From Minisyncoccota bacterium (GTDB lineage Bacteria > Patescibacteriota > Minisyncoccia > Phycocordibacterales > UBA9973): a stretch of DNA of 64,000 nucleotides. Within the stretch, counting starts at the first letter, position 1. The number at the start of each line of letters is the position of its first letter. The notes beneath the pieces were generated by a model that saw only the letters and a program-made list of their open reading frames with translations, ran no database searches and had not been told where the DNA came from. A program made the position numbers and the translations under genes. The stretch lies in assembly GCA_025453495.1 (NCBI GenBank), contig JALOQM010000001.1:155161-219160 (forward strand), in the 5' to 3' direction. Below are positions 16,100 through 36,960 of this stretch, piece by piece.

Positions 16100-16253
16100 T
16101 TATTTACTGCCTAATCTTATTGCTTTAGGTATGTGGGTCTGCCCCACTTGGCGGGCCATGTGGGTTAAGTACCAGGGTGGTGAGTCCGCGTAAGGGTATT
16201 TGGAAAGGGTTTTGAGAATTGAAATGAGGTATGTGGGTCGGGGCACCTTTTAT
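16100..16253. repeat. Intergenic repeat, family A, copy 4 (with GGTATGTGGGTC at both ends)
   Basis: AGGTATGTGGGTCTGCCCCACTTGGCGGGCCATGTGGGTTAAGTACCAGGGTGGTGAGTCCGCGTAAGGGTATTTGGAAAGGGTTTTGAGAATTGAAATGAGGTATGTGGGTCGGGG. Confidence 0.7.
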
Positions 16254-17266: not shown

Positions 17267-18016
17267 TTGAGATATAATCAGGGCATGACAGTTGGCGAAT
17301 TGGTATATCTGGAAGCACTTAAGAATGGATACAAACCCAAACTTCCCGAGGGCGTTATTTCAACGTTACAAAAGACATTGGAATCATTTCAGAGGGTCTC
17401 CGAAGATATGCGCGGACCAATACAGATGGCAGCTCAAATGGCTGAGCGCATGCAACCGCAGATAGAAACCACGAGAAAGATGGCGTTTCCTAGAATGGCT
17501 GAGTTTAGTGAATCCATTTCTAGAATCTCTTCCCTCTATGACAAAGAGGAAGAATTCGTCATCCCCGCATTTACACGACCGATTCAAGAAGTACGAATCG
17601 TGAACCCCGAGGATATCGCTATAACATCGACCAAGAGTGAGAGAGATTTTGTAATTGCCTCATATCCTCTTCCGAAGAACGCGGTATGGGAATCCCTCGA
17701 CATCCAGTTCATCGATGGGCATTTCGTTAAGGTTTCGTATCCGAACTTGGAATCAAAGAAGTTCAATTATAAGGATATGGGCTTCGTGAACATGAAGACG
17801 ACGAACCCCGATCTGAAATGGAGACTCCTCTACGCAATTGCAGAAAACGACGGAGCTTTAACTACCACGAAATGGGATAGAGGGTTCGGAAGGAACGTAA
17901 AATACGAACTCAACGAGGGACTCAAGCGATTCTTCGGTATGGCGACGAACCCCATTCCTCACTACACCAAGAGAGATGGCTACAAGCCGCTATTTTCTAT
18001 CAGACGCGAAAGATAG
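17267..18016 (+). CDS. Hypothetical protein (249 aa)
   Basis: ORF with a TATAAT-like -10 just upstream (GAGATATAATCAGGGC ATG). Confidence 0.4.
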   Translation: MRYNQGMTVGELVYLEALKNGYKPKLPEGVISTLQKTLESFQRVSEDMRGPIQMAAQMAERMQPQIETTRKMAFPRMAEFSESISRISSLYDKEEEFVIPAFTRPIQEVRIVNPEDIAITSTKSERDFVIASYPLPKNAVWESLDIQFIDGHFVKVSYPNLESKKFNYKDMGFVNMKTTNPDLKWRLLYAIAENDGALTTTKWDRGFGRNVKYELNEGLKRFFGMATNPIPHYTKRDGYKPLFSIRRER

Positions 18017-18190: not shown

Positions 18191-19486
18191 ATGGCAAAAG
18201 ACAAGATCACATGGTCGCCCGCCACTCGCAGGCTGGTAGACCTCACCAAGAACGGATACAATCCACGCAAGCTAAGCGAGAACGAACGCAGGGATTTGGA
18301 GAAGTCCGTACAAGAATTCGGCACGGTCGTCCCGATAATCCTCAACATCGGCACGCGCGCCAACACCATCATTGGCGGCGAGCAACGCGTTAAAGTATAC
18401 GCCAATCTTGGCATCGACGAAGTCGAGTGCATGGTGCCATCCCGCGAGCTGACGCTCGACGAGGAGCGCGAACTCAATCTCCGCCTTAACAAGAATACCG
18501 GCTCGTGGGACGAGGAACTCCTCAAGGACTTCGACATGAGCGTGCTTCTTGGTGTCGGCTTCGGTGACGACGAGCTTCAGAACCTCTTTGACGATGTCGA
18601 CGTAGTCGATGACGACTACAATCTCGAGAAAGCACTCAAGGAGACGATCACACCGAAAGTGAAATCGGGAGAAATCTGGGAACTCGGCAAACACCGGTTG
18701 CTTGTCGGCGACTCGACCGACGGCGAATCGGTACAGAAGCTCATGGCGGGAGACTTGGCAGACGTCGTCTACTGCGATAGCCCGTACAACATCGGCCTCG
18801 ACTACTCCAAGGGAGTCAGCAATAAAGAAAAATACCAAGGTTCATATTCCAGCAAGGACGACTCCAAGAAAGACAGCGACTTCATGACCTTCTTGGACAA
18901 GAGCATGGATGTCGCGAAATCGGTCAGCAAGAAAGATGCCCACTTCTTCTACTGGTGCGATTCTTCATACGTCGGAATGGTGCAGAGCTTGTATGGCAAG
19001 CACAAGATAGATGCGAAGCGCGTCTGTCTCTGGATCAAGAACAACCAAAACCCGACGCACAAGATCGCCTTCAACAAAGTGTACGAGCCATGCGTGTATG
19101 GCACGATCGGCAAGCCGTACCTGAACACAGGAATGCACAATGCCAACGAGATACTTAATCAGGAAGTGACGACTGGCAATCAAGTCCATGACGAGATACT
19201 CGACATGATCGATATCTGGATCGAGAAGCGCGACAGTGCCCAGTCATATCAGCACCCGACACAGAAACCCGTAACCCTCAACGAGAAGCCACTCAAGCGA
19301 TGCAGCGCACCGCTCCACATTGTCTTTTCCGGATTTGCCGGAAGCGGCAGTGACCTGATCGCCTGCGAGGAACTCGGTCGTGCGTGGCGCGGAGTCGAGA
19401 AGGATCTCATATTCGCAACCATTGTGATCGACCGATGGGAGAAATTTACCAACCAGAAAGCAGTGAAAATCCATGAAGGTAACTAA
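18191..19486 (+). CDS. ParB-like nuclease N-terminal domain fused to an N4/N6 DNA methyltransferase (beta-class)
   Basis: 431 aa; N-terminal ParB/Srx-like segment (...GYNPRKLSENERRDLEKSVQEFG...); methyltransferase motif IV DSPYN, HPTQKP, and motif I FAGSGS; 55% GC versus about 40% in flanking DNA. Confidence 0.75.
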   Translation: MAKDKITWSPATRRLVDLTKNGYNPRKLSENERRDLEKSVQEFGTVVPIILNIGTRANTIIGGEQRVKVYANLGIDEVECMVPSRELTLDEERELNLRLNKNTGSWDEELLKDFDMSVLLGVGFGDDELQNLFDDVDVVDDDYNLEKALKETITPKVKSGEIWELGKHRLLVGDSTDGESVQKLMAGDLADVVYCDSPYNIGLDYSKGVSNKEKYQGSYSSKDDSKKDSDFMTFLDKSMDVAKSVSKKDAHFFYWCDSSYVGMVQSLYGKHKIDAKRVCLWIKNNQNPTHKIAFNKVYEPCVYGTIGKPYLNTGMHNANEILNQEVTTGNQVHDEILDMIDIWIEKRDSAQSYQHPTQKPVTLNEKPLKRCSAPLHIVFSGFAGSGSDLIACEELGRAWRGVEKDLIFATIVIDRWEKFTNQKAVKIHEGN

Positions 19487-20222
19487 CGGAGACATCTTCA
19501 AAGTCGGCGACCACATCATCGCCTGCGGCGACTCGCTCGACAGAGCATTCGTCGGCAAGGTCATCGGTCATAACAAGGTGCGAGCGGTCGTCAGTGATCC
19601 TCCCTATGGGATTGCGTATGTCGAGAACAAGCAGGGATTGGCGAAGATCAGCGCGGATGAAACGAAGGTAATCGCCAACGACCATCTCCAGAGTGAGGAG
19701 GAATACGAGAACTTCACGCGCGGATATCTCGGCGCGGTCATTCCGTACCTTACGGAATACAACGCCGTGTATATCTTCAATGCTGATGCAATGTTCCCGA
19801 GTCTTCGCGCAGGCATGAAAGTGGCGGGCTTCTACTACAGCCAGATGATCATCTGGCTCAAGAACCAGCCCGTCATGAGTCGCAAGGACTACTTGGCAAT
19901 GTACGAACTCATCGCCTACGGCTGGTTCGGCAAGCACAAGATGGAGCGATCAAAGGCGCGGAATGTGATCTACCATCCAAGACCGACAAAATCGAGACTG
20001 CACCCGACGCAAAAGCCGGTGGGACTTCTGCGGAAGATCATTCCGAACTCCACGAAAGTCGGCGACGTCGTCTACGATCCCTTCCTCGGAAGCGGATCAA
20101 CTGCCGTTGCCTGTGAGCACTTAGGTCGAAAGTGCATCGGCATCGAACTTGATGAGGCGTATGTGGCAATTGCGCTCAAGCGGCTCGAGAAGCTCACTGG
20201 CGAAAAGGCTGTGAAGGTATAA
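19473..20222 (+). CDS. DNA methyltransferase (N6-adenine/N4-cytosine, beta-class)
   Basis: 249 aa; SDPPYG (motif IV), HPTQKP, FLGSGST (motif I); overlaps the upstream gene by 14 nt. Confidence 0.8.
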   Translation: MKVTNGDIFKVGDHIIACGDSLDRAFVGKVIGHNKVRAVVSDPPYGIAYVENKQGLAKISADETKVIANDHLQSEEEYENFTRGYLGAVIPYLTEYNAVYIFNADAMFPSLRAGMKVAGFYYSQMIIWLKNQPVMSRKDYLAMYELIAYGWFGKHKMERSKARNVIYHPRPTKSRLHPTQKPVGLLRKIIPNSTKVGDVVYDPFLGSGSTAVACEHLGRKCIGIELDEAYVAIALKRLEKLTGEKAVKV

Positions 20223-20226
20223 CCGT

Positions 20227-20601
20227 ATGCAGGGAGACGATTTTTCCAAGGATCCGTACAAGAAGCAGGTCTACGAAACCTACGCTCTTTGGAAGTCCCT
20301 CCCGTCATTTCTCAAAGGACAGCCGAGAGTCGCGCTTGAGAAGTTTGGCATTGAAGAAGAAGCGGTGTTTGAGCTGCTCTCGATAAAGACACAGCTTGAT
20401 TTCTCAAAGCGATACAACGTCGATACGGGCACGCTCAGTGACTGGAACAAGCGACTTGAAAAAGACGGACTTTCCAAAGACCTGAATGCATGGGCGCGCA
20501 AGCTCACGCCGAACGTCATCTTCGCTCTCTACAAGAACATCATCAAAGGCGGCCGGGCGCATGAAGTGCGAGCGTGGTTTGAGATCGTAGAACATCACTA
20601 A
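20227..20601 (+). CDS. Hypothetical protein (124 aa), translationally coupled
   Basis: Starts 5 nt after the methyltransferase stop; no recognisable motif. Confidence 0.4.
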   Translation: MQGDDFSKDPYKKQVYETYALWKSLPSFLKGQPRVALEKFGIEEEAVFELLSIKTQLDFSKRYNVDTGTLSDWNKRLEKDGLSKDLNAWARKLTPNVIFALYKNIIKGGRAHEVRAWFEIVEHH

Positions 20602-20602
20602 C

Positions 20603-20800
20603 ATGGAACCAATACAACTTGAAGAAATAAATACCATTCTCTCGGACACCCTCCGCAAGGTCGTGAACCGGGAGATATCGCTCAAGCAAGCATCCATGAT
20701 TGCCAAGCTTGCGATGACGCTCTCGAGAAACATCGCCAATACCGAGCTGAAGGATCGGGTCGAATTCCTCGAAAGCATGCTGCAAAAAACACGCATATGA
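20603..20800 (+). CDS. Hypothetical small protein (65 aa)
   Basis: Coupled start/stop with both neighbours. Confidence 0.35.
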   Translation: MEPIQLEEINTILSDTLRKVVNREISLKQASMIAKLAMTLSRNIANTELKDRVEFLESMLQKTRI

Positions 20801-22284
20801 AAAATCTGAATAACATTATTAAGAGATCGAACCTGACGCCGCTTGAGCGAGTTACCATGCTTGTCCATAACGGAGAGCATAGGCAGAAAACGGGTAAAGA
20901 TATGCTCTCGGAAGCAGAACTCAACACCCTCACCCAAGGATGGGCGGCTCGGCTCGGGCAAGCGAATGAATACAATAAATACTTGGAGATTGCTAAGCTT
21001 GAGAACTCGATGCGGATCGATGCGACGATGTTCTCATACCGCGCGGAGCTATCCTTGGTCAGGCATCAGCGATTGCTTTCGTACTGCCTGACCGAGCCGG
21101 AGCGAATGAAAAAATTGATCAATGACGACATAATGGATGGACTCGAGGAAGAAGAGTGTTTGCGGTTCGCGCTCGCTCACACATATCTCGAGTACGGCTC
21201 TGTGTTGCACCTTTTCACTTTCTTCAATCTCCCGAGAGAGATACGAGAGGATCTCGCTCTTTTGGATGACTCTGTTGCGTACAGCAATCAATATCTAGGT
21301 GATGAAGTACAGCTTTATGAAATGTTCAATGCCAGAAAGGTCAATAATGAAGACAAAGATACACTCGTCGACATCATCTTCTCGCGCATATACTACGAAG
21401 GCATCAACAAAATGCGCGGTGAAGGCACTGAGCGGGACGCTTTTATCCTTGGTGGCTACTTTGCGGAATTTCCGCTGAGCGAAGCGATATACAAAACTGC
21501 TCGTGATCTAGGTATCAAGTGTAAGAACCGGGATGAGGAGGAAATATTGGATGATATTGAGTCGTATGCCAAGGAAAAAGCCGTGACTATGGAGCATCTG
21601 ATCAAGGAATCACTGCGCTCGTGGCTTGATGATGGACTATTCACTAAGCAGTTTGCGCCAATCTTCATGAATGGTGGTTTCGATACAGTAAACGGCATTA
21701 CCAGGAAGAACCACAAAAAACTGTTTGAGATTTGGTATGCGGAGCTAGAAAAATCCAAGAGATATTTCAATACTCTTTTCCGTATGCAGAAACTTAAACG
21801 AGAAGAAGCAGAAATAACCGTCCTTGGAGAAACAAAAACTGTAGAGAAACTCACTGGGGAAAGTTTGTATACATGCCAAGAGGATTTGGAATTTGTACGA
21901 GAATACAAAAAGCAAGTCTATATGATTCTGCCGTTTTCAAATCTCGCTTTGTTTATTGAGAAGCATACCAAGCCAATCCAGAAGTACACGACGCTCTGTC
22001 AGTTTAGGAAGCTCGGGAAGAGAGCATCGGATACCTTTGATGCTAATTTCACGGAAGAATATGACAAGCTTATTGAGTCGTATCGGGAAGAAATGACGCT
22101 TCTCAATCACGAACTTGCGAAGTTGACCGATGTGGCAACTGAACATCTATCTGCAAAAGCCGAGGAAGATTTCAGATGCGCTATTCAGATCTGGAACGGC
22201 AGTTTTCGTTTTGATCTCAGAGAAGCCGACGACAAAGCCGACATTATTGAGAAGTATGAGAGGGATTTCAGGAAGGTTATGTAG
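20797..22284 (+). CDS. Hypothetical protein (495 aa), last gene of the methyltransferase operon
   Basis: ATGA overlap with the upstream ORF; no Walker A or other motif identified. Confidence 0.45.
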   Translation: MKNLNNIIKRSNLTPLERVTMLVHNGEHRQKTGKDMLSEAELNTLTQGWAARLGQANEYNKYLEIAKLENSMRIDATMFSYRAELSLVRHQRLLSYCLTEPERMKKLINDDIMDGLEEEECLRFALAHTYLEYGSVLHLFTFFNLPREIREDLALLDDSVAYSNQYLGDEVQLYEMFNARKVNNEDKDTLVDIIFSRIYYEGINKMRGEGTERDAFILGGYFAEFPLSEAIYKTARDLGIKCKNRDEEEILDDIESYAKEKAVTMEHLIKESLRSWLDDGLFTKQFAPIFMNGGFDTVNGITRKNHKKLFEIWYAELEKSKRYFNTLFRMQKLKREEAEITVLGETKTVEKLTGESLYTCQEDLEFVREYKKQVYMILPFSNLALFIEKHTKPIQKYTTLCQFRKLGKRASDTFDANFTEEYDKLIESYREEMTLLNHELAKLTDVATEHLSAKAEEDFRCAIQIWNGSFRFDLREADDKADIIEKYERDFRKVM

Positions 22285-22295
22285 AATCCAGATTC

Positions 22296-22715
22296 TTATC
22301 CAATTACAATATTTTCTCCATTACCAAATTCCATTTCTTTATACATAATCTCGCCTGATTCATTCTTCTTATAAGGAAGTGTGGCGGAAATTACTTTATT
22401 TTCAGCATCCTCCAGATGAATAGAAATTGCACCATCAGTATTTCCTGCATATAGATTCGCATTAAAAGCAATACCGAAAGCATGTAAATCATGTTCTTGC
22501 TTTTTTACTTGGAAACTCTGCATGAGAGAATCAATGACTTCTTTTGGGGTGGGATGTTTTTCTAAAAAATCATTTTCAACGGCAACTATTTCATCTTTTG
22601 AGTTTAAATACATACCGAACGGATAAAATTCACCATGTTGGATTAGCATTTTCTGAGCAAAAGGAACTAGAGCGTTTAGTAACTTATCAAGTTGTGTGCG
22701 TTCTTTTTCATTCAT
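22296..22715 (-). CDS. Candidate immunity protein for the RHS toxin
   Basis: 139-aa ORF overlapping the stop of the 2042-aa toxin gene by 4 nt, the typical toxin/immunity arrangement. Confidence 0.45.
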   Translation of the reverse strand: MNEKERTQLDKLLNALVPFAQKMLIQHGEFYPFGMYLNSKDEIVAVENDFLEKHPTPKEVIDSLMQSFQVKKQEHDLHAFGIAFNANLYAGNTDGAISIHLEDAENKVISATLPYKKNESGEIMYKEMEFGNGENIVIG

Positions 22716-22718
22716 GTT

Positions 22719-25700
22719 TTATTCACTTGTGCCAGAAAGGGCATTACCAATATTTTTCAATGTCGACTTTACACCTCCTAATGCGTTTTGCAAAGGGCCT
22801 GAGAGACGAGTATCCGGGCGAACGTGTAAATCAAGACTATAGTTTGCGTCTTTCGCATAACTTACAAAATCTTTCATTTGGTTTGTGTAATTCAGACGTG
22901 CAACATTTTTAACTTCCATGAGAGATTTTTTTGAGTGATCCAATCCATCGGGTATACGATAGCTAGCAGTTCCAGTAGCGGATTCTATTCTTTCAGTATT
23001 TTTTACAATACCGCTGGCAAGTTCGCCCGCTCTTCCTTTCGCTGCATTTTCGGCAATATCACCTAATACTTTACCTTTTGGCACTTCTCCTGCGGTAACA
23101 GCGCCAAGTATTGCCATAGGATAGTTTCCTTGCTTTGCATCAGTAATAGCTTGAGAAAGTCCGTATTGGCCAACAGGCGTTGTAAGTGATTGCAAGAATG
23201 ATGTAATTTGTGGAGCATTCATTGCGATATACGCCGCAGCAAAAATAAGTTCTCCTGCAAATTTACCACTTGCATCGCTCATCGTAATCGGATTATTCCT
23301 TCCGTATGAATAGCTGTTCAGTGACTGCGGATCGCTCAGGATACTCGTCATATCCCTGCCCGACAGTGCTTTTGTCGGTTTTTCGTCACCAATAGTTAAA
23401 AATACCGGATCCTGAGAAATAAACTTCCCAACATTCCCCTTGTAGTAACGCGCATTCAAGTAATCGAGTCCTGTATCGTTGTCATGAATCTGCCCCACAT
23501 ACTTTCTCTGTTCATTATACGCCCCAGACGAGATGCGGGATTCGCCGAATGGGTAATAATCGAGTTGCTGAGAAATTGCACCTGAGGCGTCAGTGACGGC
23601 GGTAGTTGAACCGAGGTGATCGGTATGGATATAATACGGCGTCACTGTGACCGTCGGATTAGTAACAGTTTCGATCGTGGCGACAAGGGTGCTTCCTGCA
23701 TAGACTTGCTTGGTCTTCTTCGTACCGTCATCGTTGTAATACTTGTTCGGGTATGAGATGTCAGTCGTGCCTGTAACATAGCGGACGCGGTTACCTTCGT
23801 GGTCGTACCAGTAGTTTGCGGTCACTGAGCCGTCAGTACTCGAAACAAGCTGATCGCGGTAGTTCCAGGTATGCGTGAACGTGCCGTCTGACGTCAGATT
23901 GCCGTCATTGTCGTACGTGCGAGTAATACTGTTAATTTTTGTCGCAGCATGCGGATTCGCATACCCGGTGCCGGCATAGACGTATGCGCCCGCTGGACCA
24001 GAGAGCAGATTGCCGAGCGCATCGTAAGCGAATGAATGCGTGTAGTCACCGCCGCTTGCCGTGCCGGTAATGACAGCGTCAGTCAGACGATAGAGTGCGT
24101 CATATGAATACGTAGCGGTCTTTGCAGTATCAGTATCGGATGCATCATCAAGTTCGGTGATATTGCCGACCGGATCATACACATATGCGAAATCCTGCAC
24201 ATGACGGGTCGAATTCGTCGTCAAACGATTGGTTAGGCGGTAGAGCGCTGAAGCAGCATAGGTGTTCATCGTCGTCACGCCGTTCGCATCATTCTGCGTC
24301 TGGACCTGATCCGTCGGACTGTAGTCGAAGTTAGTAATGAGCGCAGTGAACGTGCGCGCAGACGGTTCCCTACGATCAACTGATTCGAGCAAACCGGCAG
24401 TATTGTAGGTGTAGCGAATCTCGGACATATCGGGATAGACGACTGAGGATATATTCCCCTGTCGATCGTAGAACGTGGACGTCGTATAGGTGTTTCCGTT
24501 GATGACCTTGATTTCGTTGACGACCGTGCCTCTCGAATTGTAGAGGTAGGATGTGTCCGCTCCGAGAAGCATGGTCACTGAGCAGAGTTTGCCCGTACCA
24601 TTCGTGCAGCTTGAGTACGAATACGCAATATCCGTGTCGGTGGTTGCAGTGTTGTCTTCCGAAGTGACCTGATTGACGTCGTTATAGGCGTAGTTTGTCG
24701 TCAGTGCGTTCGGACTTACTGTCTGAATAATGTTTCCTGCATCGTCATACGTATATGTCCATATGCCATAGGTTGCATCAGACACAGCGTGCGTGTCTTG
24801 CGCAGTCAGACGACGATCGAGGCCGTCATACGTGAAATTGCGGACGTTCCCGAGCGCATCGGTTATCTTCGTAAGTTTGCCGTTCAAATTCCATTCGTAG
24901 TTCGTGGTATAAGCGCTTGCAGTCGCATAGAATTCGTCGACAGCGGACAAGTTCTCATATGCGTCGTGATAATAACGCTTCATGTTTCCTGCTGGATCAG
25001 TGACAGTGGTCATCCAGTCGTCGTAGGCATTCGTCGTCGTACCAACTGCGTTCGTCGATGTGAGTACGCGACCAATTGGGTCATATGCGTACGTAGTGTA
25101 GAGCGCCGTAGTGGTTGTCGGTGATGTACGAGCAGTACCCGTGCTTGTATAGCGGAGTGATTCTTTCAAGGTCTTGCCGCGAGCATCATATGCCTTATCG
25201 CTCACGTTGAAAGTATTTGATGCTTCCGCTTCTTTGCGCTCCTGGATCAGGCGACCGAGGCCGTCGAAGTACTGATAGGTATCTGCCGTTGTCGAGGTGT
25301 CGAGATAGTCGGTGCGCTGTACTTTTACCGCACCGGAAGTGTCGGTATATGCATATGCCGTTTTTGCAACTGGAGAATACGGTGAAGTACTATCGGGAAT
25401 TTTTTCAGTGAGCACGCGATCAAGGCCGTCATAAACAGTTTGGTAGACGAAGCTGTTCTGATCGGTCACCTGCTTCGGCTTGCCGAGCGAGTAGTCATAG
25501 ACATACTGCGTCGTATGTGAGAGCGGGTCGGTAACAGTTGTTGGGTAGAGATTATAGGTATCGTATGAATACGAGGTTACCTTTCCACGCGGATCGGTAT
25601 CAGAAGTGACAAGACCATATGAGTTATACGCTTTCTGACTATTAATGTAGGTTGTCGACGCTTTCCAATCTTCAACCTTAGTCTGATTACCTTTGTTTAC

Positions 25701-28700
25701 CGATCCATATGAAAGCGTATCGTAATAGTATTTCGACTCTTTGACGGTGGTGGAAGATGCGTCAGTCACTGTGCTGATCTTTGGCACCACCACTCGGGTC
25801 GTCGTGTTTGCCGCATACACATTTGTCGTGGTGCGCTTGTCGGAACCGGTATCAGTGAATGAGCCGTCTGATGCCACTGCATTTACCCTACCCCATTCGG
25901 TCTTCGTCAGGAGCGAGCCGTCCGTGTTGTCATAGGTATATTCGGTCGCAGTATCGGCATGATCTGAATCGCCATCATACGTCAGCACAGTCTGGCGCGC
26001 GAGCTTCACGAAATCGTGGTCAGTGCCGATGTTGTAGTGATCCCACTTATTGACCGTCAGGCGATAGAGATTGTTCGAGCTGTCACGTTCTTCGACACGG
26101 TACGGCTGACCTATTTTTGCAGGGATATCGTTGTATTCACCGTTTGATGTATCAGTGCCATTACCCTGGTGGTAAAAGGTCTTCGTGACATTGCCGACTT
26201 CATCGGTTGTCGTGACGATATTGAAGCCAGCGAGCGTTCTATGTCCGTCTGAGTAGTACTGATACTTGCCGTCCTGATACGAGTACTGTCTCGTTCCGGT
26301 CGTGCCGAATGCGTCGTTCGTCGTGATGTCTTTGACGACTGTTATGGACTGGGACGGACTTCGGGTTATCGGATTCTTGTCATTAATAGGCTGTTCCTTA
26401 TATGTAATGGACATCGAGCCGCCCGCAGGAGCAGTAATGGTTGAAAGATAATCGGATTTTGAACCGGTATTGAGCCAGACGGCATTTGGGTTCGTGATGT
26501 TTGTACTGTTGTTATAGGCAAATATCCAGTCTGGTAGTCCGTCGTTATTTAGATCAGAAAGTCTTGTGTCATAATCAAATCCTACCTGATTTCCATTTGG
26601 ATAGGTTGGCATGGTCCAGCTTGCAAGTAGCCAACCTGTCCCAGTACTAAGCCAAACCTTGTTAGGATTGATAGTGTTTGTGTTGTTGTTATAAGCATTT
26701 ATCCAATCTGGCAGATTATCTCCATTAATATCTGTAAGCTGGGTATCGTAGGCAAATCCGACATGATTACCATTTGTGTATGTAGGCATGGTCCAAGAAA
26801 CTGCTGTCCACCCAATTCCTGTATTCAGCCAGACAGTATTTGGACTGGCTGCTGTTGGGGAATTGTTGTCATATCCATGAATAAAGTCAACAAGACCATC
26901 GGCGTTTACGTCAATAAGTTTGTTCGTATAATGAAATCCAACCTGATTGCCTGTTAGATAAGTCGGCATCGTCCAACTTGCTGATGTCCAGCCAGAGCCG
27001 GTATTCAACCATACTGCATTCGGATTCGTGGTACTCGTATTATTATTAAAGGCATAAATAAAATCTGGAAGAATATCTCCGTTTATATCCACGAGTTGCG
27101 TGTTTGTATGAAACCCGACCTGATTGCCGCTTGGATATAGCGGCATGTTCCACGATGCGTTCGACCAGCCCGATCCAGTGTTAAGCCAGACCGTATTTGG
27201 GTTTACTGTGCTTGTATTGTTGTTGTAAGCATAGATCCAGTCAGGTAAACCATCTCCATTGAGATCGATCAACTGCGTATTTACTGTATGAAAACCTACC
27301 TGGTTACCACTTGGATAAGTCGGTATAGTCCATGATGCTGATGACCAACCCGATCCATTATTGAGCCAGACCGCATTCGGATTCGCGGTGCTTGTATTGT
27401 TATTATAAGCATAGATCCAATCGGGTAGACCATCGCCATTGAGATCAATCAACTGGGTATTCAAAGTATGAAAGCCCACTTGCCCGCCAGTTGGAAATGT
27501 CGGAAACGTCCATGACGCGAGCGACCAGCCAGATCCGGTATTAAGCCACACAGCGTTTGGATTCGTGGTGCTCGTATTGTTATTGAGCGCATACACGAAG
27601 TCCGGCAAATTATCACCGTTTACATCCACAAGCTGCGTTGCGGAAGCGAACCCTACTTGTCGGAGGTCCGGATAGACAGGCATCGTCCATGACGCGAGCG
27701 ACCATTCATCATCCACAGTCTGATAATCGAATGACATCGCCGGGAGTACCGTCGGCGTGCCGCTTTCGTCATAACCCGTTTCGGTAATTGAAGAAAGGAG
27801 CGAACGATTCTGGTTGTGTCCAGGTAGGTATACAAGGTCGTACTTGCGAGTATTTGTACCGTTAATTTTTGCAACAATGCTCGTAACAAGCGAAGCCGGA
27901 GCGACTGAGAAAGCAGGATTATAGACAGTCACGACATCGGGGCGCGAGCCTAACGTAAAGTCGATTTCGAAAATTCCGTCAGTGGTTCCAAAACCAGTGT
28001 AAAAAATCTTCGATGGATAAATCTGCCCTGCGCTTTTGGTATATTCATAGCGGACGAAGTTATCATTCGTATCGCGCGTCTCTTCAAGCATCCACTTATA
28101 GATATTTCCCGAGTTGTCTTGGCGAGCTTGGGCGTTTGCACCGAAGGTATATTTCACACCCTTTTTATCGGTTACCACCCATCCGTTGGAGACGCGTTCG
28201 TATCGCAAGAAATCTCCCTTTTCAGAACGAGGTGCGTAAAGATTTGATCCGAGCGGAACAAGCTCCCCAGAGAGAGATGACGAAAACACATCGCCTGTCG
28301 TATAGAGGTCTTCCGTACCGGTGCGATTGACGCGCTCGATGTATGGAATATTGACGGACCAGCCGTAGCCGACGACAGAGTCGTTAACTTGATTCTCGCT
28401 ATTGTACATAAGCGAGAGATCAGGCGTCATGTCATTTCTGCCTGGTGGAACCTGAATCTTGTAGGTATGGACGAATGCCCCTGTCAGGTTGTCGATTTCA
28501 GGAGAAAGCAATCCTTTTGAATCCTGCGGCGGAAGCGGATCAGGATCTACTTCTGGCGCTTGAGGGGCTGGCGGCTCTATCGGCGGAGCTGCTTGCTGGT
28601 TTTCTTCAGAAACCTGAGTTTCAGTTTCTTCGCTAACGGTTGGCGTCTCAGTCTGTACTTCTGGCTCAGGAGTTATAACAGTTTCCTGAGTTGCTTCCGT

Positions 28701-28847
28701 ATTCGCTGTTTCTTCAGCGAATACGGTCAGGACAGGAGAAAAAAAGATTGAAAATACAAGAACGCATACCGCCAGCTTCCTAAAAAGACCGGATGCTGAT
28801 AATGGGTTTTTTGCGATATGCATATATTGTTTTTCTTGTTTTAACAA
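22719..28847 (-). CDS. Giant secreted SpvB-domain / FG-GAP beta-propeller / RHS (YD-repeat) polymorphic toxin (Tc-toxin TcB-TcC-like fusion) with a variable C-terminal tip
   Basis: 2042 aa. Signal peptide, then a Pro/Glu-rich linker, then an SpvB-like region (...GYGWSVNIPYIERVNRTGTEDLYTTGDVF...). About eight repeats of VDxNGDxLPDxxYAYNNNTSTxNPNAVWLNTGSGW (FG-GAP-like). Many YD repeats (YTYDALGN, YAYDPIGR, FTYDGLDRR, YTYDDAGN...). An RHS-core-like DYYPFGESR...YYKGNVGKFISQDP...NNPITMSDASGKF. A C-terminal domain of about 200 aa containing IPDGLDH...EVKNV, a possible PD-(D/E)xK motif. Confidence 0.85.
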   Translation of the reverse strand: MLKQEKQYMHIAKNPLSASGLFRKLAVCVLVFSIFFSPVLTVFAEETANTEATQETVITPEPEVQTETPTVSEETETQVSEENQQAAPPIEPPAPQAPEVDPDPLPPQDSKGLLSPEIDNLTGAFVHTYKIQVPPGRNDMTPDLSLMYNSENQVNDSVVGYGWSVNIPYIERVNRTGTEDLYTTGDVFSSSLSGELVPLGSNLYAPRSEKGDFLRYERVSNGWVVTDKKGVKYTFGANAQARQDNSGNIYKWMLEETRDTNDNFVRYEYTKSAGQIYPSKIFYTGFGTTDGIFEIDFTLGSRPDVVTVYNPAFSVAPASLVTSIVAKINGTNTRKYDLVYLPGHNQNRSLLSSITETGYDESGTPTVLPAMSFDYQTVDDEWSLASWTMPVYPDLRQVGFASATQLVDVNGDNLPDFVYALNNNTSTTNPNAVWLNTGSGWSLASWTFPTFPTGGQVGFHTLNTQLIDLNGDGLPDWIYAYNNNTSTANPNAVWLNNGSGWSSASWTIPTYPSGNQVGFHTVNTQLIDLNGDGLPDWIYAYNNNTSTVNPNTVWLNTGSGWSNASWNMPLYPSGNQVGFHTNTQLVDINGDILPDFIYAFNNNTSTTNPNAVWLNTGSGWTSASWTMPTYLTGNQVGFHYTNKLIDVNADGLVDFIHGYDNNSPTAASPNTVWLNTGIGWTAVSWTMPTYTNGNHVGFAYDTQLTDINGDNLPDWINAYNNNTNTINPNKVWLSTGTGWLLASWTMPTYPNGNQVGFDYDTRLSDLNNDGLPDWIFAYNNSTNITNPNAVWLNTGSKSDYLSTITAPAGGSMSITYKEQPINDKNPITRSPSQSITVVKDITTNDAFGTTGTRQYSYQDGKYQYYSDGHRTLAGFNIVTTTDEVGNVTKTFYHQGNGTDTSNGEYNDIPAKIGQPYRVEERDSSNNLYRLTVNKWDHYNIGTDHDFVKLARQTVLTYDGDSDHADTATEYTYDNTDGSLLTKTEWGRVNAVASDGSFTDTGSDKRTTTNVYAANTTTRVVVPKISTVTDASSTTVKESKYYYDTLSYGSVNKGNQTKVEDWKASTTYINSQKAYNSYGLVTSDTDPRGKVTSYSYDTYNLYPTTVTDPLSHTTQYVYDYSLGKPKQVTDQNSFVYQTVYDGLDRVLTEKIPDSTSPYSPVAKTAYAYTDTSGAVKVQRTDYLDTSTTADTYQYFDGLGRLIQERKEAEASNTFNVSDKAYDARGKTLKESLRYTSTGTARTSPTTTTALYTTYAYDPIGRVLTSTNAVGTTTNAYDDWMTTVTDPAGNMKRYYHDAYENLSAVDEFYATASAYTTNYEWNLNGKLTKITDALGNVRNFTYDGLDRRLTAQDTHAVSDATYGIWTYTYDDAGNIIQTVSPNALTTNYAYNDVNQVTSEDNTATTDTDIAYSYSSCTNGTGKLCSVTMLLGADTSYLYNSRGTVVNEIKVINGNTYTTSTFYDRQGNISSVVYPDMSEIRYTYNTAGLLESVDRREPSARTFTALITNFDYSPTDQVQTQNDANGVTTMNTYAASALYRLTNRLTTNSTRHVQDFAYVYDPVGNITELDDASDTDTAKTATYSYDALYRLTDAVITGTASGGDYTHSFAYDALGNLLSGPAGAYVYAGTGYANPHAATKINSITRTYDNDGNLTSDGTFTHTWNYRDQLVSSTDGSVTANYWYDHEGNRVRYVTGTTDISYPNKYYNDDGTKKTKQVYAGSTLVATIETVTNPTVTVTPYYIHTDHLGSTTAVTDASGAISQQLDYYPFGESRISSGAYNEQRKYVGQIHDNDTGLDYLNARYYKGNVGKFISQDPVFLTIGDEKPTKALSGRDMTSILSDPQSLNSYSYGRNNPITMSDASGKFAGELIFAAAYIAMNAPQITSFLQSLTTPVGQYGLSQAITDAKQGNYPMAILGAVTAGEVPKGKVLGDIAENAAKGRAGELASGIVKNTERIESATGTASYRIPDGLDHSKKSLMEVKNVARLNYTNQMKDFVSYAKDANYSLDLHVRPDTRLSGPLQNALGGVKSTLKNIGNALSGTSE

Positions 28848-28961
28848 TCTTAATAATATGACTTGATTCTATATGTTAGACGCCAAAAGTAAACTGATCA
28901 GTCGACTCGAGTATATACATAAGTTCTAAAGGAAAACTAAAGTTTATGTGAAGTCCGACTC

Positions 28962-29765
28962 TTATTTTTCCTCTGCCTTATTGAGTATCAGGGAAATCAT
29001 CGCGAGCGGAACCTCATAATCACGAAGTTCAAGAATATATGGCGTCTCCTTTCCATCCTTGAAAATATGGAGGCCGTCTGAGCGAAGCTCAAGCGAACCG
29101 ATCTTCTTAAACGGGAATGAGAACTGCTTGCGATAACCAAGATAGCCGACGCGCTGATTCGTGATATAGAACACGCCAGAATCCTCCTTGTCCATGATCT
29201 CCTTGGAGACGCTTTGTACGCCTATCGATCCGACGCGGTATCGCACGCCTTTCATGATCTTTATCGAACCAGTAAAGCCGCCGTAGTTCACGCGCGTGGT
29301 GACTTTCTTGCGCTTCATCATGTCTGCGGCAATAGCCCAATGAAGTACCTCGTCTTCTTTGAACACGACATTCAGTTCAGCTTGCGCGTTTTCGATTGTC
29401 GGCAATATGCCCTTGTCTACGAGCGCAAGCGTATAATACTTGTTGAAATTGTCTTGGTTGAAGGCGATGTCGCTTTTCGTGAGACTGAAATGGTTGAGCA
29501 ATTTCTCAAGCGCATTCTTTTCGTCATCAGTGATCCGCTTGTCTGAACCCATAGCGGTAAAAACAGAAGCGACCGAGGTCTTATGGATTGCTTTCACATC
29601 GTCATCAGACAAACCAAACTCCTTTTGCATTTCCATGAGTTTCTCGCTTTCATCGAAGGTCAGTTCACTATCGGCAAGGAACGCTGTCATTGACTCTTGA
29701 TACTTCTTGAGTCCATCCCGTTTCTTTAGGTACCGTTTAACAAATCCGGGTAGATGTAGTTTCAT
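28962..29765 (-). CDS. Hypothetical protein (267 aa) upstream of the RHS toxin gene on the same strand
   Basis: ORF; 3-nt gap to the upstream membrane protein gene. Confidence 0.4.
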   Translation of the reverse strand: MKLHLPGFVKRYLKKRDGLKKYQESMTAFLADSELTFDESEKLMEMQKEFGLSDDDVKAIHKTSVASVFTAMGSDKRITDDEKNALEKLLNHFSLTKSDIAFNQDNFNKYYTLALVDKGILPTIENAQAELNVVFKEDEVLHWAIAADMMKRKKVTTRVNYGGFTGSIKIMKGVRYRVGSIGVQSVSKEIMDKEDSGVFYITNQRVGYLGYRKQFSFPFKKIGSLELRSDGLHIFKDGKETPYILELRDYEVPLAMISLILNKAEEK

Positions 29766-29767
29766 GG

Positions 29768-30385
29768 CTAGTTTATCTCTTCAACCTTAACCTCCCAATT
29801 TATTCCGCTGATAACCCGGATGTAATAACGGCCCGGAGCGATATTGCGGTATGTTGTCTGTCCTTCTCCTTGTTCGGATCCTTCGGTTGAGATGGAAAGA
29901 CCAGGTCCAATATAGCCGCCGTTTTCCTTTTCTAGGCTTATGCTCGAGAAACTGCCGACTGTTGAACCGGTAGTCGTTGCAGTAACGCGTACTTTCTTGC
30001 CCGTGATATTGAAAGACTCGGAATCTTGATTGCCTTTGCCTTTGAGTGAATACACTTCCGTGAAGACTTCCTCTTGAGGTGCGGATTTTTCGCTCGTTCC
30101 AGATTGAGAATCAATTACTTGGCGGGCTTCATCTATTGAACCTGATACGATTAGGCCTCCAATGATGAGAATGGCCGCGATGACGAATCGCGCCATGCCG
30201 GAGAAATTGATCTTGAGATATTTCTTGGTGAGCGTGTTGACGATTGGCAATAAAATGACTCCGGCGATGACGACGGCGACATGACCACTCGCAAGACCTG
30301 CGATGATAGTAAGTACGCCAAGGACCCAGAGAACAATTGAACCTGCTGAGACTGATTTAACGGTCTCGTTGTTTTCGTTATGCAT
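29768..30385 (-). CDS. Hypothetical membrane protein (205 aa)
   Basis: Two to three N-terminal TM helices, then an S/T/G-rich extracellular segment. Confidence 0.4.
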   Translation of the reverse strand: MHNENNETVKSVSAGSIVLWVLGVLTIIAGLASGHVAVVIAGVILLPIVNTLTKKYLKINFSGMARFVIAAILIIGGLIVSGSIDEARQVIDSQSGTSEKSAPQEEVFTEVYSLKGKGNQDSESFNITGKKVRVTATTTGSTVGSFSSISLEKENGGYIGPGLSISTEGSEQGEGQTTYRNIAPGRYYIRVISGINWEVKVEEIN

Positions 30386-30708
30386 ATTTTTCTAGCGGGT
30401 TTTTAATTTGGCGGGAATAACAAAAGACTCCCCGCCATCGCGATGGAAACCTTTCGGCCCCACCCGTACCCGTTTCCAGGTACGACCCGCTAGAGTGACT
30501 CTGACGAGGAGTCTTTTATTCTCTAGCGGGATTTTCGACCATATCCTTGGCGCAAACCAAGGGGTTAGGTCTCCTATTAAGTTGTAAAGCGATTATACCC
30601 TTTTTATAGGGTCGTCGCATCCTAGCTCGGATTAGGGAGTTTGTGTAGCGTACTTACCAACAAAGTGGATTAAGCGGACTGGACTTCGTAGGCCTTCTGA
30701 GTCATCCA
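30386..30708. ncRNA. GC-rich highly structured intergenic region (candidate cis-regulatory RNA or ncRNA)
   Basis: Three copies of TCTAGCGGG (two direct, one inverted as ACCCGCTAGAG), giving two mutually exclusive 10-bp pairings, one followed by ATTTT. A further 10-bp pairing AAAAGACTCC/GGAGTCTTTT. Local hairpins GGCGGG..CCCGCC, GTACC..GGTAC, CCTTGG..CCAAGG. Much higher GC than the flanks. Confidence 0.4.
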
Positions 30709-31035
30709 TTGGGTGTGGATGATATCGAGGCGATCATAGACGCCGCCAAGCATTTCAAATACGAGGAAACCGAAACTGCCTATGCCTTTAATCGAATCTC
30801 GCAACTTGCTGACTCGAAATCAAATCTGAAACGAGCGATCAAAGAGCGCGTTCGGCTTTTGTATGCCGCGTATATCTCTTTGGCTTCCTTTATTCCCGAC
30901 GAGGATGTCGACTACATGCTTGGGTTATACGGAAGGCGTACACAAAAGCGATCCGCTAGAATTGTGGCGCGGGTGATGAAAGAGATGGAGGTGCTTGAAA
31001 AAGAAATTCGGAAGTTTAATCCTTTATCTAATTAA
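30709..31035 (+). CDS. Hypothetical protein (108 aa)
   Basis: ORF downstream of the structured region. Confidence 0.35.
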   Translation: MGVDDIEAIIDAAKHFKYEETETAYAFNRISQLADSKSNLKRAIKERVRLLYAAYISLASFIPDEDVDYMLGLYGRRTQKRSARIVARVMKEMEVLEKEIRKFNPLSN

Positions 31036-31060
31036 AATTTGAAATTAATACTCCTTCATT

Positions 31061-31945
31061 TTATATTCCCAAATCACCAAGGGCATCCTCCAGTAAAGGA
31101 ATGATGTCTTTGAAATACACCCTTAACTTTTTTAGGTCGTTAGCGCCATTTGCTCTTCTTTTAATATTTTCCCATTCTTTACGTAGTAAGTACTCATCTC
31201 CAGATAGATTGGTGAGGTTAAAAGACATCTTATCTATGATGTAACTTTTTTCTATTTTCTTATTTAGAAATATTACAGGATAATTTGAATCATCCCAGAA
31301 AAGGAGTTCGTAGGCTGTCGCCACCCCTTTCGAGCCGTTTACTCCCATAACAACTTCAGACCCCTGCGCAAAAAATCTATGTTCAAAATCCTCCCACATT
31401 GCTGGGGTAAATGATTTTGAATCCATTTCTTGCAAGAGTACATTTTCTATAAAGGATGAGAGAGTTTGATAAGCAAAAGTCACTAGTTTTTCGTCTCTTT
31501 TATCATCGGGATTTTTATCTGCGTGAAATAGATTATTTCTGACTTCATACCAGAACTCCACAACATTCATAAAGTCATTCTCGTCAGCAATTTTACCTTG
31601 ATTATCTAGACCGGCTCTGTGATGATAACTCGCATTATTCCACCAACCATTTCCAGTTGTCATCGGTTCTCTTTGTAGGTAGTTGATGAGGTCTATCAAT
31701 CTTTCTTTGTAATCTGGCTCACCATTTATAAAAGCAGTCCATCTTGCTTGATATGTCTCATCGTTTTTGAAATGTTGTATATACGAGCGTTCTTTTGTAT
31801 TCCCAGAAGCTACCTCGATGTCTTGTTTGGAATATTTATATTTTTTCAAAAAAGCTTCAAAGGCGAGATACTCAAAAACATATCGAGAAAAATAATCTTC
31901 TTTCGCCTTTTCGTGCCAATTTCTTATAAGGGAGATATCTGTCAT
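31061..31945 (-). CDS. HEPN-like (Rx4H) domain protein, possible Abi-type defence protein
   Basis: Probable start MTDISLIRNWHEK; ...EVRNNLFHADKN... matches the HEPN R-x4-H motif; AT-rich. Confidence 0.4.
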   Translation of the reverse strand: MTDISLIRNWHEKAKEDYFSRYVFEYLAFEAFLKKYKYSKQDIEVASGNTKERSYIQHFKNDETYQARWTAFINGEPDYKERLIDLINYLQREPMTTGNGWWNNASYHHRAGLDNQGKIADENDFMNVVEFWYEVRNNLFHADKNPDDKRDEKLVTFAYQTLSSFIENVLLQEMDSKSFTPAMWEDFEHRFFAQGSEVVMGVNGSKGVATAYELLFWDDSNYPVIFLNKKIEKSYIIDKMSFNLTNLSGDEYLLRKEWENIKRRANGANDLKKLRVYFKDIIPLLEDALGDLGI

Positions 31946-32169
31946 GTAAGTTGATCGCTTTAAGCATTCGCAAGGCAACTATATCATGCGTAGACAGGAC
32001 TAAAAAGACGATGGAATTTCTTGATTTTTAGGCATTTCGGTTACCAACAGCTACCACTCGGGACGCTCTGGACTCCTAAAAGGCATTGCGTCATTCATGT
32101 AGGTGTATGAACTATACACAAACACAAGCGCCATTAGGGACGACGGCCAAAGTAGTCGTTCCAATCAAA

Positions 32170-33438
32170 ATGAAATACTGCCTTTATGCGAGAAAGTCGA
32201 CAGAGTCGGAAGAGCGGCAGGTACTCAGTATCGACAGTCAAATCAAGGAGATGCTCCAATTAGCAGAGCGCGAAGGACTTGAGATCGTGACGATGAAGCG
32301 CGAAAGCCACTCTGCCAAGGAAACAGGCCAGCGGCCGGTCTTCAACGAGATAATACAGGAACTACATCAAGGAAAGTTCAACGGTATCCTGACATGGGCA
32401 CCAGATCGCATAAGCAGAAATGCTGGCGACCTGGGCAAGATCGTCGACCTCATGGATGCAGGAAAATTACACCAGATACGCACCTTCGGACAGACGTTCG
32501 GCAACAATCCAAATGAGAAATTCCTGCTCATGATTTTAGGCTCGCAGGCCAAGCTCGAAAACGACAACCGAGGCATTAATGTCAAACGTGGGCTGCGAAC
32601 CCGGGTAGAGATGGGCTTATGGCCGGGCATGGCACCGCTCGGCTACCTAAATCAGAAGATGCTCGACAGGAAGTGCCAGATCGCCGTCGATCCCGACCGC
32701 GCCCCGATCGTTCGCAAAATGTTCGAAAAAGTAGCATATGAAGGATGGAGTGGACGGAAGGTCTACAACTGGCTTAGATTTGATCTGAACTTCCATACCA
32801 GAGGCAACAGGCCGCTGACGCTCTCGGGAGTGTATCGAATATTCAATATGCCAATCTATTACGGACCATTTGAATACCCGAGAGACTCCGGCAATTGGTA
32901 CGACGGCAAGCATGAGCCGATCATAACTAAGGAGTTATATGAAAAAGCGCAGGAACAGCTCAAACGTGACAAGATCGTCCGAGAGAATCGAGAGTTTGCA
33001 TTCACTAAGCTATTTACCTGCGGTATGTGTGGCTCAGGCATATCGGCACAGGAGAAATACAAGGAACTGAAAGATGGCACGAATGCCAAGTACGTCTACT
33101 ACTCATGCTCGAAAGCGCGAGACCGAAACTGCAAAAACAAGTATATTCGTGAGGAAGAACTGATCGAGGAGCTACTTAAGATCATCGACAAACTAAACAT
33201 TAATGAATTAGGGATGAGAATGAAGCTTGAGGAGGAAATCAAGCGATTCAATAGACTTCAGAGGCTTGCAACGAAAGGAACGCCCAAGTACAACATCAAC
33301 GAAGATGACGTGAATACAAGAGAGTATGCCAAGTATGTGCTACGAGAAGGAACGCCACTTGAGAAGCGAGAGTTGATGGGTCATCTGAGGAGTAGACTGT
33401 TGCTGAAGGACAAGAAGATTACGCTACTTGATCAATAA
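32170..33438 (+). CDS. Large serine recombinase (resolvase/invertase N-domain, recombinase domain and zinc ribbon)
   Basis: Internal start MKYCLYARKSTESEERQ (catalytic Ser region); ...RISRN...; GINVKRGLRTRVEMG; Cys cluster CGMCGS...YYSCSK; C-terminal coiled coil. Upstream 32050-32075 carries TACCACTCGGGACGC. Confidence 0.85.
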   Translation: MKYCLYARKSTESEERQVLSIDSQIKEMLQLAEREGLEIVTMKRESHSAKETGQRPVFNEIIQELHQGKFNGILTWAPDRISRNAGDLGKIVDLMDAGKLHQIRTFGQTFGNNPNEKFLLMILGSQAKLENDNRGINVKRGLRTRVEMGLWPGMAPLGYLNQKMLDRKCQIAVDPDRAPIVRKMFEKVAYEGWSGRKVYNWLRFDLNFHTRGNRPLTLSGVYRIFNMPIYYGPFEYPRDSGNWYDGKHEPIITKELYEKAQEQLKRDKIVRENREFAFTKLFTCGMCGSGISAQEKYKELKDGTNAKYVYYSCSKARDRNCKNKYIREEELIEELLKIIDKLNINELGMRMKLEEEIKRFNRLQRLATKGTPKYNINEDDVNTREYAKYVLREGTPLEKRELMGHLRSRLLLKDKKITLLDQ

Positions 33439-36830: not shown

Positions 36831-36960
36831 CTGTATACTTAAAAGTCAATAACGTAAAAGAGCGACACTGATCGCTCTTTTTGCTACAACCATGAAGCCT
36901 TGTGGGTCGCGCTACCTCCTTAGGCAGTCGGGATACAAAACTAACAGGTTGTCAATGCGG

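Follow-up and report, generated by a model that had tools for sequence, protein, structure and literature searches.

The 64,000-nucleotide (nt) stretch analysed here (contig JALOQM010000001.1, positions 155,161 to 219,160; called the window below, with coordinates counted from its first letter) carries the gene of a large RHS-repeat toxin followed directly by a small gene for a protein of 139 amino acids (aa). We read the two genes as a polymorphic toxin-immunity pair, with a toxin of the 'cocoon' kind built from RHS repeats, in a Patescibacteria (Ca. Pacebacteria) genome, with a probability of about 0.8. The reading rests on the order of domains and motifs in the toxin, its homologies, the recurrence of the same pairing at other loci and the insertion of the pair as a cassette into a conserved gene block, while the steps of the mechanism proposed below follow the TcB-TcC and Rhs homologues. 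A preliminary description, made from the letters of the DNA, had placed the producer in a small-genome lineage, and the source names of the records agree with this, as the producer belongs to the Patescibacteria (candidate phyla radiation, CPR).

The toxin is encoded by a single unbroken open reading frame (ORF) at 22719..28847(-), which comprises 2042 codons if counted from an in-frame TTG at 28847. The length of 2042 aa given earlier holds as a codon count from that TTG, but the first ATG, eight codons further in at 28823, gives 2034 aa; residues are numbered here from this ATG, and the earlier numbering is eight higher. The 2034-aa product has the same length and sequence as the NCBI entry 'putative toxin [Candidatus Pacebacteria bacterium]'. 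Every domain named in the preliminary description was recovered with a significant score in Pfam and NCBIfam (SpvB, Pfam E=7e-12; FG-GAP_3, Pfam E=5e-17; RHS_repeat, Pfam/NCBIfam E=1.5e-14; YD_repeat_2x, Pfam/NCBIfam score over the cut-off), and all the sequence motifs quoted there were found in the translation. The N-terminus has the make-up of a Sec signal peptide, with a basic n-region, a 20-residue hydrophobic core and VFA ahead of an acidic stretch, and probably serves as one; the linker behind it contains 15 Glu, 14 Pro, 10 Thr and 7 Gln among its 73 residues. The FG-GAP repeats number seven, not about eight as first estimated, by two counts: DxNGD motifs occur at residues 400, 460, 520, 579, 638, 698 and 757, about 59-60 aa apart, and the DNA repeats with a period of 177-180 nt across 26461-27704. 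The family profile matched this propeller to integrin alpha-V propellers and to the propeller region of TcdB1/YenB, and the PDB matches of the YD-repeat shell were to Tse15, Tse5, RhsP-like proteins and TccC3/TccC2/YenC2. The domains and the other features of the locus are listed in Table 1.

The shell ends in an Rhs-associated core (TIGR03696), which matched at 55.4 bits against a cut-off of 32.5 over profile positions 1-75 of 76. Its catalytic Asp pair, D1805 in FISQDP and D1850 in MSDASGK, was aligned to D1369 and D1391 of Tse15, both of which are essential for self-cleavage of that toxin (PMC11461821). D1805 and D1850 are invariant in an alignment of 28 homologues, and conservation in the same alignment ends directly past D1850-x-x-G1853, a break of the kind that classically separates a scaffold from its polymorphic tip. 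The two Asp residues lie ~45 residues apart compared with 22 in Tse15, a longer spacing that is common to the whole family. Cleavage is predicted just after residue ~1853.

The tip past the predicted cleavage site spans residues 1854-2034; the unique tip of about 200 aa in the preliminary description thus exists, but it is of ~181 aa, 82 of which form the nuclease domain. This domain matched Tox-REase-7 (PF15649) over the whole profile (1-84 of 84; E=1.2e-22, 80.3 bits against a cut-off of 25), and the signature 'GxxxE, IxD, ExK, Q' given for the family by Zhang et al. 2012 (PMC3482391) is complete, as GRAGE (E1934), RIPD (D1959), EVK (E1970 and K1972) and Q1982. Among 33 aligned tips, R-I-P-D, K, N, Q and D are invariant. 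The fold predicted for the tip resembles nucleases of the restriction-endonuclease fold, TseT, a toxin of a type VI secretion system (T6SS), among them, and the tip is predicted to be a full-length Tox-REase-7 nuclease of that fold. The preliminary description had suspected a PD-(D/E)xK nuclease here and had named the lack of a nuclease-like fold as the finding that would speak against it; the Pfam match, the full set of signature residues and the predicted fold of restriction-endonuclease type bear the suspicion out. For a Tox-REase-7 tip of CdiA from Acinetobacter, chromosomal DNA breakage has been reported, as related in a paper that cites the work. The part of the tip ahead of the nuclease domain has a low predicted local distance difference test score (pLDDT) in the model; Gly/Ala-rich hydrophobic stretches stand in the same place in related orphan tips, and this part is possibly a membrane-entry or linker segment.

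Table 1. Coordinates of the toxin-immunity locus and associated features in the window
Feature	Coordinates	Strand	Basis or remark
RHS polymorphic toxin gene	22719..28823	(-)	2034 aa from first ATG at 28823; stop TAA 22719-22721
Putative Sec-type signal peptide, residues 1-36 (MHIAKNPLSASGLFRKLAVCVLVFSIFFSPVLTVFA, then EE)	28716..28823	(-)	read by eye
Acidic low-complexity linker, Glu/Pro/Thr-rich, residues 37-109	28497..28715	(-)	composition
SpvB/TcB N-terminal-like region, residues 110-375	27699..28496	(-)	Pfam SpvB; profile aligns with TcdB1, YenB and SpvB (6p0x)
Seven-bladed FG-GAP integrin-like beta-propeller, residues 376-800	26424..27698	(-)	FG-GAP_3, motif spacing
RHS/YD-repeat shell, residues 801-1755	23559..26423	(-)	RHS_repeat, YD_repeat_2x; PDB matches to Rhs cocoons
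Rhs-associated core, self-cleaving aspartyl-protease motif, residues 1756-1853	23265..23558	(-)	TIGR03696
N-terminal part of the tip predicted to be released, residues 1854-1929, hydrophobic, Gly/Ala-rich (KFAGELIFAAAYIAMNAPQ...AILGAVTAGE)	23037..23264	(-)	sequence
Tox-REase-7 PD-(D/E)xK nuclease domain, residues 1930-2011	22791..23036	(-)	Pfam PF15649
Candidate immunity protein, 139 aa, cytoplasmic, family A1	22296..22715	(-)	stop 22296-22298; no signal peptide
Toxin-immunity cassette, 6.68 kb	22285..28961		between the stops of the 495-aa gene (22284) and the 267-aa gene (28962)
Intergenic region, 114 nt, upstream edge of the cassette, promoter-like TTTACT-16-TAGAAT (28893 to 28866)	28848..28961	(-)	consensus scan
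LOOT RNA, full-length (Rfam RF03000)	30446..30571	(-)	81.5 bits against a cut-off of 46.4

The start codon of the 139-aa ORF (ATG at 22715) is separated from the toxin stop by a 3-nt spacer (TAA-AAC-ATG), instead of overlapping it by 4 nt as had been stated, while the 139-aa ORF and the 267-aa and 205-aa ORFs on the other side of the toxin are themselves present where the preliminary description put them. The 139-aa protein found no match in Pfam, NCBIfam, PADLOC, PHROGs or PDB. An exhaustive HMMER search assembled a family around it, termed A1, which counts 714 cluster representatives with E no higher than 1e-3 and still 68 when the limit is set to 1e-10; their length is 130-170 aa in nearly every case (a word-indexed search returned two relatives only). 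Members are labelled 'hypothetical protein' by their source records, and 45 of them gave no Pfam or NCBIfam match at E up to 0.1 or 0.01; neither the 139-aa protein nor these relatives matched ImmHEAT, Imm23 or Imm54, the known immunity families for Tox-REase-7, which sets the candidate apart from the immunity proteins listed in 2012 (PMC3482391). The family shares the pattern LLNxLxPFAQxML..HGEFYPFG ... DAI.V.LEH ... LPY, and the AlphaFold model of the 139-aa protein (pLDDT 92) shows a long helix on an antiparallel sheet. One hit of the HMMER search, the 3230-aa protein P0123, was not counted as a true relative, its 17 short matches to residues 84-115 (E=8e-31) being regarded as a repeat artefact; it is probably a repeat protein made of a similar beta-hairpin.

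At five other places, A1 members lie directly past Tox-REase-7 tips. The only close relative (47% identity) shares its first 11 nt with the end of a truncated gene that encodes a Tox-REase-7 tip (L001/L002), and that tip is 63% identical to the window tip over the domain. In a Ryanbacteria locus (L003/L004), the RHS protein P0113 ends in a Tox-REase-7 tip and is followed after 5 nt by a 134-aa protein that hhalign assigned to A1 (98.6%, E=1e-15). The remaining three came from a sample of neighbours at 80 genomic A1 loci from many phyla, in which an RHS protein or fragment stood directly upstream at three distinct loci (L046=L047, L061 and L073), each time with a divergent Tox-REase-7 tip; clustering of the neighbours in these 80 loci yielded no other recurrent one. 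Because A1 stands directly past Tox-REase-7 tips at five other places, the 139-aa protein is probably the immunity protein of the toxin, and the suggestion that the downstream ORF is a plausible immunity gene gains from this recurrence. The three A1-paired tips from Patescibacteria (window, L002, L003) have a C-terminal tail that is divergent and rich in Lys, Ser and Leu (22722..22790 in the window), and tips paired with HEAT-repeat proteins have a conserved C-terminal end, ...(I/V)xL(R/N)(F/Y)LP; as a lead only, the C-terminal tail of the tip may be a determinant of immunity specificity.

Several points weigh against reading the two genes as a toxin-immunity pair. In about 76 of the 80 genomic loci, no toxin stands upstream of A1, so that most members are solitary genes and the main role of the family could be a different one. 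The tips closest to that of the window (55-65% identical) are followed by HEAT-repeat proteins of ~230 aa, not by A1, and such proteins are the immunity type that Zhang et al. 2012 listed for Tox-REase-7 (PMC3482391). The A1-paired tips do not form one clade, and one tip (L005) is followed by an unrelated 134-aa protein; by hhalign, this partner and the HEAT protein of L006 are both unrelated to A1. In the toxin itself, the final cleavage motif is DASGK and not the usual DPxG(L/W). Nuclease activity, toxicity, self-cleavage and neutralisation are all properties that we infer from the sequence, and the search for a TcA-type translocator, discussed below, covered the 64-kb window and six related loci.

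The points that concern A1 could be taken to mean that the 139-aa ORF is not an immunity protein, but a widespread small protein with another role, and that protection comes from encapsulation and export or from another gene. Consistent with this, ~95% of the sampled members are solitary in unrelated contexts, the family matches no curated immunity family, and the most similar tips use HEAT-repeat immunity proteins. We nevertheless regard it as rather unlikely, as the only recurrent neighbour of A1 across distant phyla is a Tox-REase-7 tip, located directly upstream on the same strand, and the pairing of tip and A1 is seen at six places including the window, in both tip subfamilies. Toxin and partner have also changed in parallel between L002 and the window (63% and 47% identity, respectively), and polymorphic toxin systems commonly include orphan immunity genes that stand alone (PMC3482391). 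It is quite probable that Tox-REase-7 tips have recruited several inhibitor families, of which A1 is an uncatalogued one, and that the majority of A1 genes stand alone or are orphans. With at least 714 clusters, no annotation and a confidently predicted fold, A1 offers a testable new candidate inhibitor of a nuclease toxin family.

The toxin has at least 925 homologues at E below 1e-10, mostly of ~1900-2900 aa and built on the same SpvB, FG-GAP and RHS scaffold. Their hosts, where named, are mostly Patescibacteria (Paceibacterota, Parcubacteria, Nomura-, Uhr-, Doudna- and Ryanbacteria), with a few in other phyla, free-living ones included, and one in an archaeon. The homologues end in various tips (HNH, VanY-type peptidase (PF02557/PF13539), ribonucleases, Tox-GHH, Ntox44, peptidase M91 and Tox-REase-7), and a small gene follows the toxin directly in all five homologue loci that were read as DNA or gene lists. 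Zhang et al. 2012 defined this architecture as the 'TcdB/TcaC' class, comprising a signal peptide, SpvB, an integrin-like propeller, RHS, a variable tip and an immunity gene (PMC3482391). The window toxin has all of these parts in the same order, with a tip that varies among homologues and a small gene next to it, and differs from the table of 2012 in that Tox-REase-7 is not listed there among the tips, nor Patescibacteria among the hosts (PMC3482391). A fusion of B and C components without TcA, which the preliminary description considered unusual, is thus not so, given at least 925 homologues with swapped tips and a class defined in 2012 (PMC3482391). The toxin adds a member to a known class, and finding Tox-REase-7 on an SpvB/propeller/RHS scaffold extends the catalogue of 2012 only trivially; with class, tip and logic known, and the NCBI name already 'putative toxin', the toxin itself adds little. 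In the literature, the SpvB/propeller/RHS architecture in Patescibacteria was met only as a passing mention in a Saccharibacteria genome paper, which in 2018 noted a similar RHS toxin with an immunity gene (PMC6031116). SpvB/propeller/RHS cocoons free of TcA appear to be a frequent type of large toxin in Patescibacteria. Orphan RHS-core/tip fragments, each with small ORFs, lie downstream of the main gene in L003/L004 (16432..20924) and L006 (8758..10110) and are the classical store for tip replacement; the 64-kb window holds no second RHS-core/tip copy. Integrases and IS66 were seen beside orphan tips.

Searched as a single sequence against PDB, the toxin matched T6SS Rhs proteins only, while the family profile matched TcdB2-TccC3 best (E=2e-60, 207 bits), in support of the homology to TcB plus TcC proposed earlier for the SpvB/FG-GAP/RHS protein. 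TcdB1 (E=8e-29) and YenB (E=2e-27) were also matched, and profile positions 341-827 are collinear with ~336-804 of the TcdB1/YenB chain, that is, the end of the SpvB part and the propeller; TccC2 and YenC2 were matched on the C-terminal half, and Tse15 was among the profile matches as well. The best relatives of solved structure are therefore the TcB-TcC components of Tc toxins (Photorhabdus TcdB2-TccC3, PDB 4o9x and 6h6e; Yersinia YenB/YenC2, 4igl), which have in common with the window toxin the SpvB-like start, a propeller inserted at ~340-830, the YD shell and an aspartyl-protease core that frees the encapsulated tip. Unlike TcB-TcC, the window toxin is one polypeptide and not two, has a predicted Sec signal peptide and no TcA nearby, and bears a nuclease tip with an immunity gene where Tc effectors are eukaryote-directed enzymes. 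The likeness raises the alternative that the protein forms the BC part of a true Tc (ABC) toxin, in which a TcA encoded elsewhere would bind to the propeller and inject the tip, in the way known from Photorhabdus or Yersinia. The structural matches, the propeller at the same position and the fact that the 64 kb examined belong to a contig of at least 251 kb are compatible with this, but we consider it very improbable: the window has no other ORF longer than 562 aa, compared with more than 2000 aa for a TcA, no TcA-like gene or Pfam family was found in the window or in six related loci, antibacterial polymorphic toxins, unlike Tc effectors, typically combine a nuclease tip with an immunity gene, and Zhang et al. 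treat SpvB, propeller and RHS proteins as a separate class (PMC3482391).

The polymorphic toxin of the window was further compared with other YD-shell and Tox-REase-7 systems. With the T6SS Rhs effectors (Tse15, Tse5, RhsA/RhsP) and the Sec-exported WapA (Bacillus, Streptococcus), it has in common the YD cocoon, cleavage by an Asp pair, a polymorphic tip and a downstream immunity gene; it differs from them in the SpvB and FG-GAP N-terminus and in having neither a PAAR/VgrG-binding or clade domain nor a T6SS. The tip has the same Pfam domain and signature residues as Tox-REase-7 tips of CdiA (Pseudomonas, Acinetobacter) and of candidate T6SS effectors (Campylobacter CJ488_0980/0982), which stand on other delivery scaffolds and go with other immunity families. 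TseT-TsiT (Tox-REase-5) of Pseudomonas aeruginosa (PDB 7dym, 9oz0) is another close system; the TseT fold matches the predicted tip. The bacterial teneurin-like proteins (PMC13018210; PDB 9pt5, 9ifo) resemble the window toxin in their exposed YD shell enclosing a toxin, their propeller and their downstream immunity gene, but they have an FN-plug and an NHL propeller where the window has FG-GAP, and they were matched on the YD-shell part only, at 73-77 bits compared with 207 for TcB-TcC. YD shell and propeller being also the superfold of teneurins, and the bacterial teneurin-like proteins scoring with the profile (77 bits), the protein might be taken for a teneurin-like surface adhesin or receptor with a vestigial toxin tip. 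This is extremely improbable, in that the catalytic residues of protease and nuclease are all intact, a cognate small gene lies next to the toxin, the propeller is FG-GAP and not NHL, and the bacterial teneurin-like proteins are themselves toxins with immunity genes (PMC13018210). For these proteins no dedicated injector is known (Raoelijaona et al. 2026; PMC13018210), and delivery of a passenger without an injector is a mechanistic question common to them and to cocoons of the present kind.

Taken as a toxin-immunity pair, the two genes would work as follows. The Sec signal peptide would carry the toxin out of the cell, where the SpvB-like region and the YD repeats would form a closed shell with the seven-bladed FG-GAP propeller at one opening. 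The aspartyl protease of the Rhs core (D1805/D1850) would cut after residue ~1853, so that the shell would enclose the ~180-aa tip as a detached passenger, probably in an unfolded state. When a target cell is met, the tip would be released and enter it, possibly aided by its hydrophobic first 75 residues and presumably with no TcA-type translocator involved, and the Tox-REase-7 domain (E1934, D1959, E1970, K1972) would cut nucleic acid, most likely DNA. The cytoplasmic 139-aa protein would bind and block the nuclease and so protect the producer and its kin.

The target might instead be the host cell of an episymbiont and not competing kin, in which case the nuclease would free nucleotides that the producer cannot make and the immunity protein would prevent suicide. 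The data are compatible with either target, the producer is a Patescibacteria bacterium from a group in which this toxin class is very abundant, and a Sec-exported toxin with a long linker could sit on the cell surface. We hold a host-cell target to be unlikely, however, since competition between related strains has as its hallmarks tips that vary, immunity genes cognate to them and cassettes of orphan tips (L003, L006) (PMC3482391), and the architecture also occurs in free-living phyla and an archaeon. At one locus (JGI 3300050046), a 2069-aa homologue with the same Tox-REase-7 tip (P0040) lies directly past a series of phage-tail-like genes (Phage_tube_2 and a faint Phage_GPD) and ahead of a tyrosine integrase; there is a possibility that some such toxins travel with, or are delivered by, tail-like particles. 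Related toxin cassettes more generally tend to have genes of mobile elements as neighbours, among them ArdC-like genes in L091.

The toxin and the 139-aa gene lie within a conserved block of the window, 18191..33438, consisting of two DNA methylase genes, the 124-aa, 495-aa, 267-aa and 205-aa genes, the LOOT RNA, a 108-aa gene and a large serine recombinase gene. The three closest loci (L095, L121 and L123), with proteins 44-93% identical to those of the window, have the same order, with methylase, methylase, 124-aa and 495-aa genes on the forward strand, 267-aa gene, 205-aa gene and LOOT on the reverse strand, and the recombinase further along. The 495-aa and 267-aa genes meet there tail to tail, with stops 6 nt apart in L121 (5907/5914), an overlap of 4 nt in L095 (1998/1995) and the same order in L123. 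Because the two genes abut in these syntenic loci, the toxin-immunity pair is, by this comparison, an accessory cassette that has been inserted where two genes of the conserved block converge. The two co-oriented genes upstream of the toxin (28962..30385), counted with the toxin unit in the preliminary description, belong to a backbone that exists without the toxin, and they do not make up a three- or four-gene operon with it; the 267-, 205-, 305- and 495-aa proteins were found in none of the six other RHS loci. A scan for promoters and terminators did not return more sites than expected from shuffled sequence.

The junction at 22284/28962 is one of two variable slots, holding the RHS cassette in the window and standing empty in L095, L121 and L123. 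The second, at 30572..32085, holds a 305-aa gene in the window, nothing in L095 and genes of 355 aa and 839 aa in L121. The backbone itself varies, as L122 and L129 have no homologue of the 267-aa or the 205-aa gene. Genes outside 18.2-33.4 kb have no homologues in the loci with LOOT, except for weak matches of 29-36% (two genes, three loci). Neither the cassette nor the backbone is bordered by meaningful repeats, direct or inverted, the search for the ends of an element, for att sites and for empty sites found none, and the GC profile of the window was uninformative. The arrangement fits an element that is at least modular and may be mobile. Among the backbone proteins, the 267-aa one (28962..29765(-)) has a weakly TerB-like N-terminus (Pfam E=0.003), and its residues 16-101 match the PADLOC candidate defence protein PDC-S48 (E=1e-11). 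The 495-aa protein (20797..22284(+)), downstream of the two DNA methylases, has no match in Pfam, PHROGs or PADLOC and is conserved in LOOT loci at 44-62% identity; from its position, it could be the nuclease of a restriction-modification unit. The 305-aa gene (31061..31978) gave a weak DzbB-like match.

Between the LOOT RNA of the block and the 205-aa gene downstream of it are 60 nt, and LOOT comes with a TATAAT-like box and a T-run of its own. L005, a second Tox-REase-7 RHS locus, also contains a LOOT RNA (17696..17815(-)) and a serine recombinase, and has no synteny with the window other than the RHS gene, LOOT and the recombinase. A 22-base LOOT pattern derived from these two copies matched 57 metagenome stretches (L093-L149), and all 11 matches tested reach the Rfam threshold; the pattern had no match in viral contigs. 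None of the 57 stretches contains an RHS gene. A homologue of the window recombinase (32086..33438(+)), 56-90% identical, is present in 18 of them, always 5' of LOOT and divergent from it, and six more have distant recombinases; where at least 6 kb are available on the recombinase side, the close homologue is found in 13 of 19 loci. About half have, in addition, homologues of the two DNA methylases, the ParB-fused and the plain one (18191..20222). Rfam types LOOT merely as a small RNA (sRNA), but from these associations it may belong to a modular or mobile element and not be a free-standing sRNA. A wider proposal, which we regard as doubtful and put forward only tentatively, is that the pair is cargo in a variable slot of an undescribed Patescibacteria element made up of LOOT, the large serine recombinase and the ParB-fused and plain methylases, that LOOT is a functional RNA of this element, and that the 139-aa protein founds a new Tox-REase-7 immunity family with a helix-on-sheet (pilin-like) fold. 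The presence/absence polymorphism of the toxin cassette in a conserved block provides a first genomic context for LOOT. What is modestly new at the locus is the unannotated family of immunity candidates, the presence/absence evidence for the cassette and the link of LOOT with recombinase and methylases.

Elsewhere in the window, a 90-nt sequence occurs in two copies (15577..15666 and 16151..16240), which are 73% identical and 574 nt apart. They are located just upstream (+ strand) of a 253-aa ORF (16254..17015(-)) in a low-GC stretch (0.33) and may represent a non-coding element that is repeated. Right beside a tRNA-Ser gene (36957..37044), a perfect inverted repeat of 20 nt encloses a 4-nt loop (37063..37106) and resembles a terminator-type hairpin.

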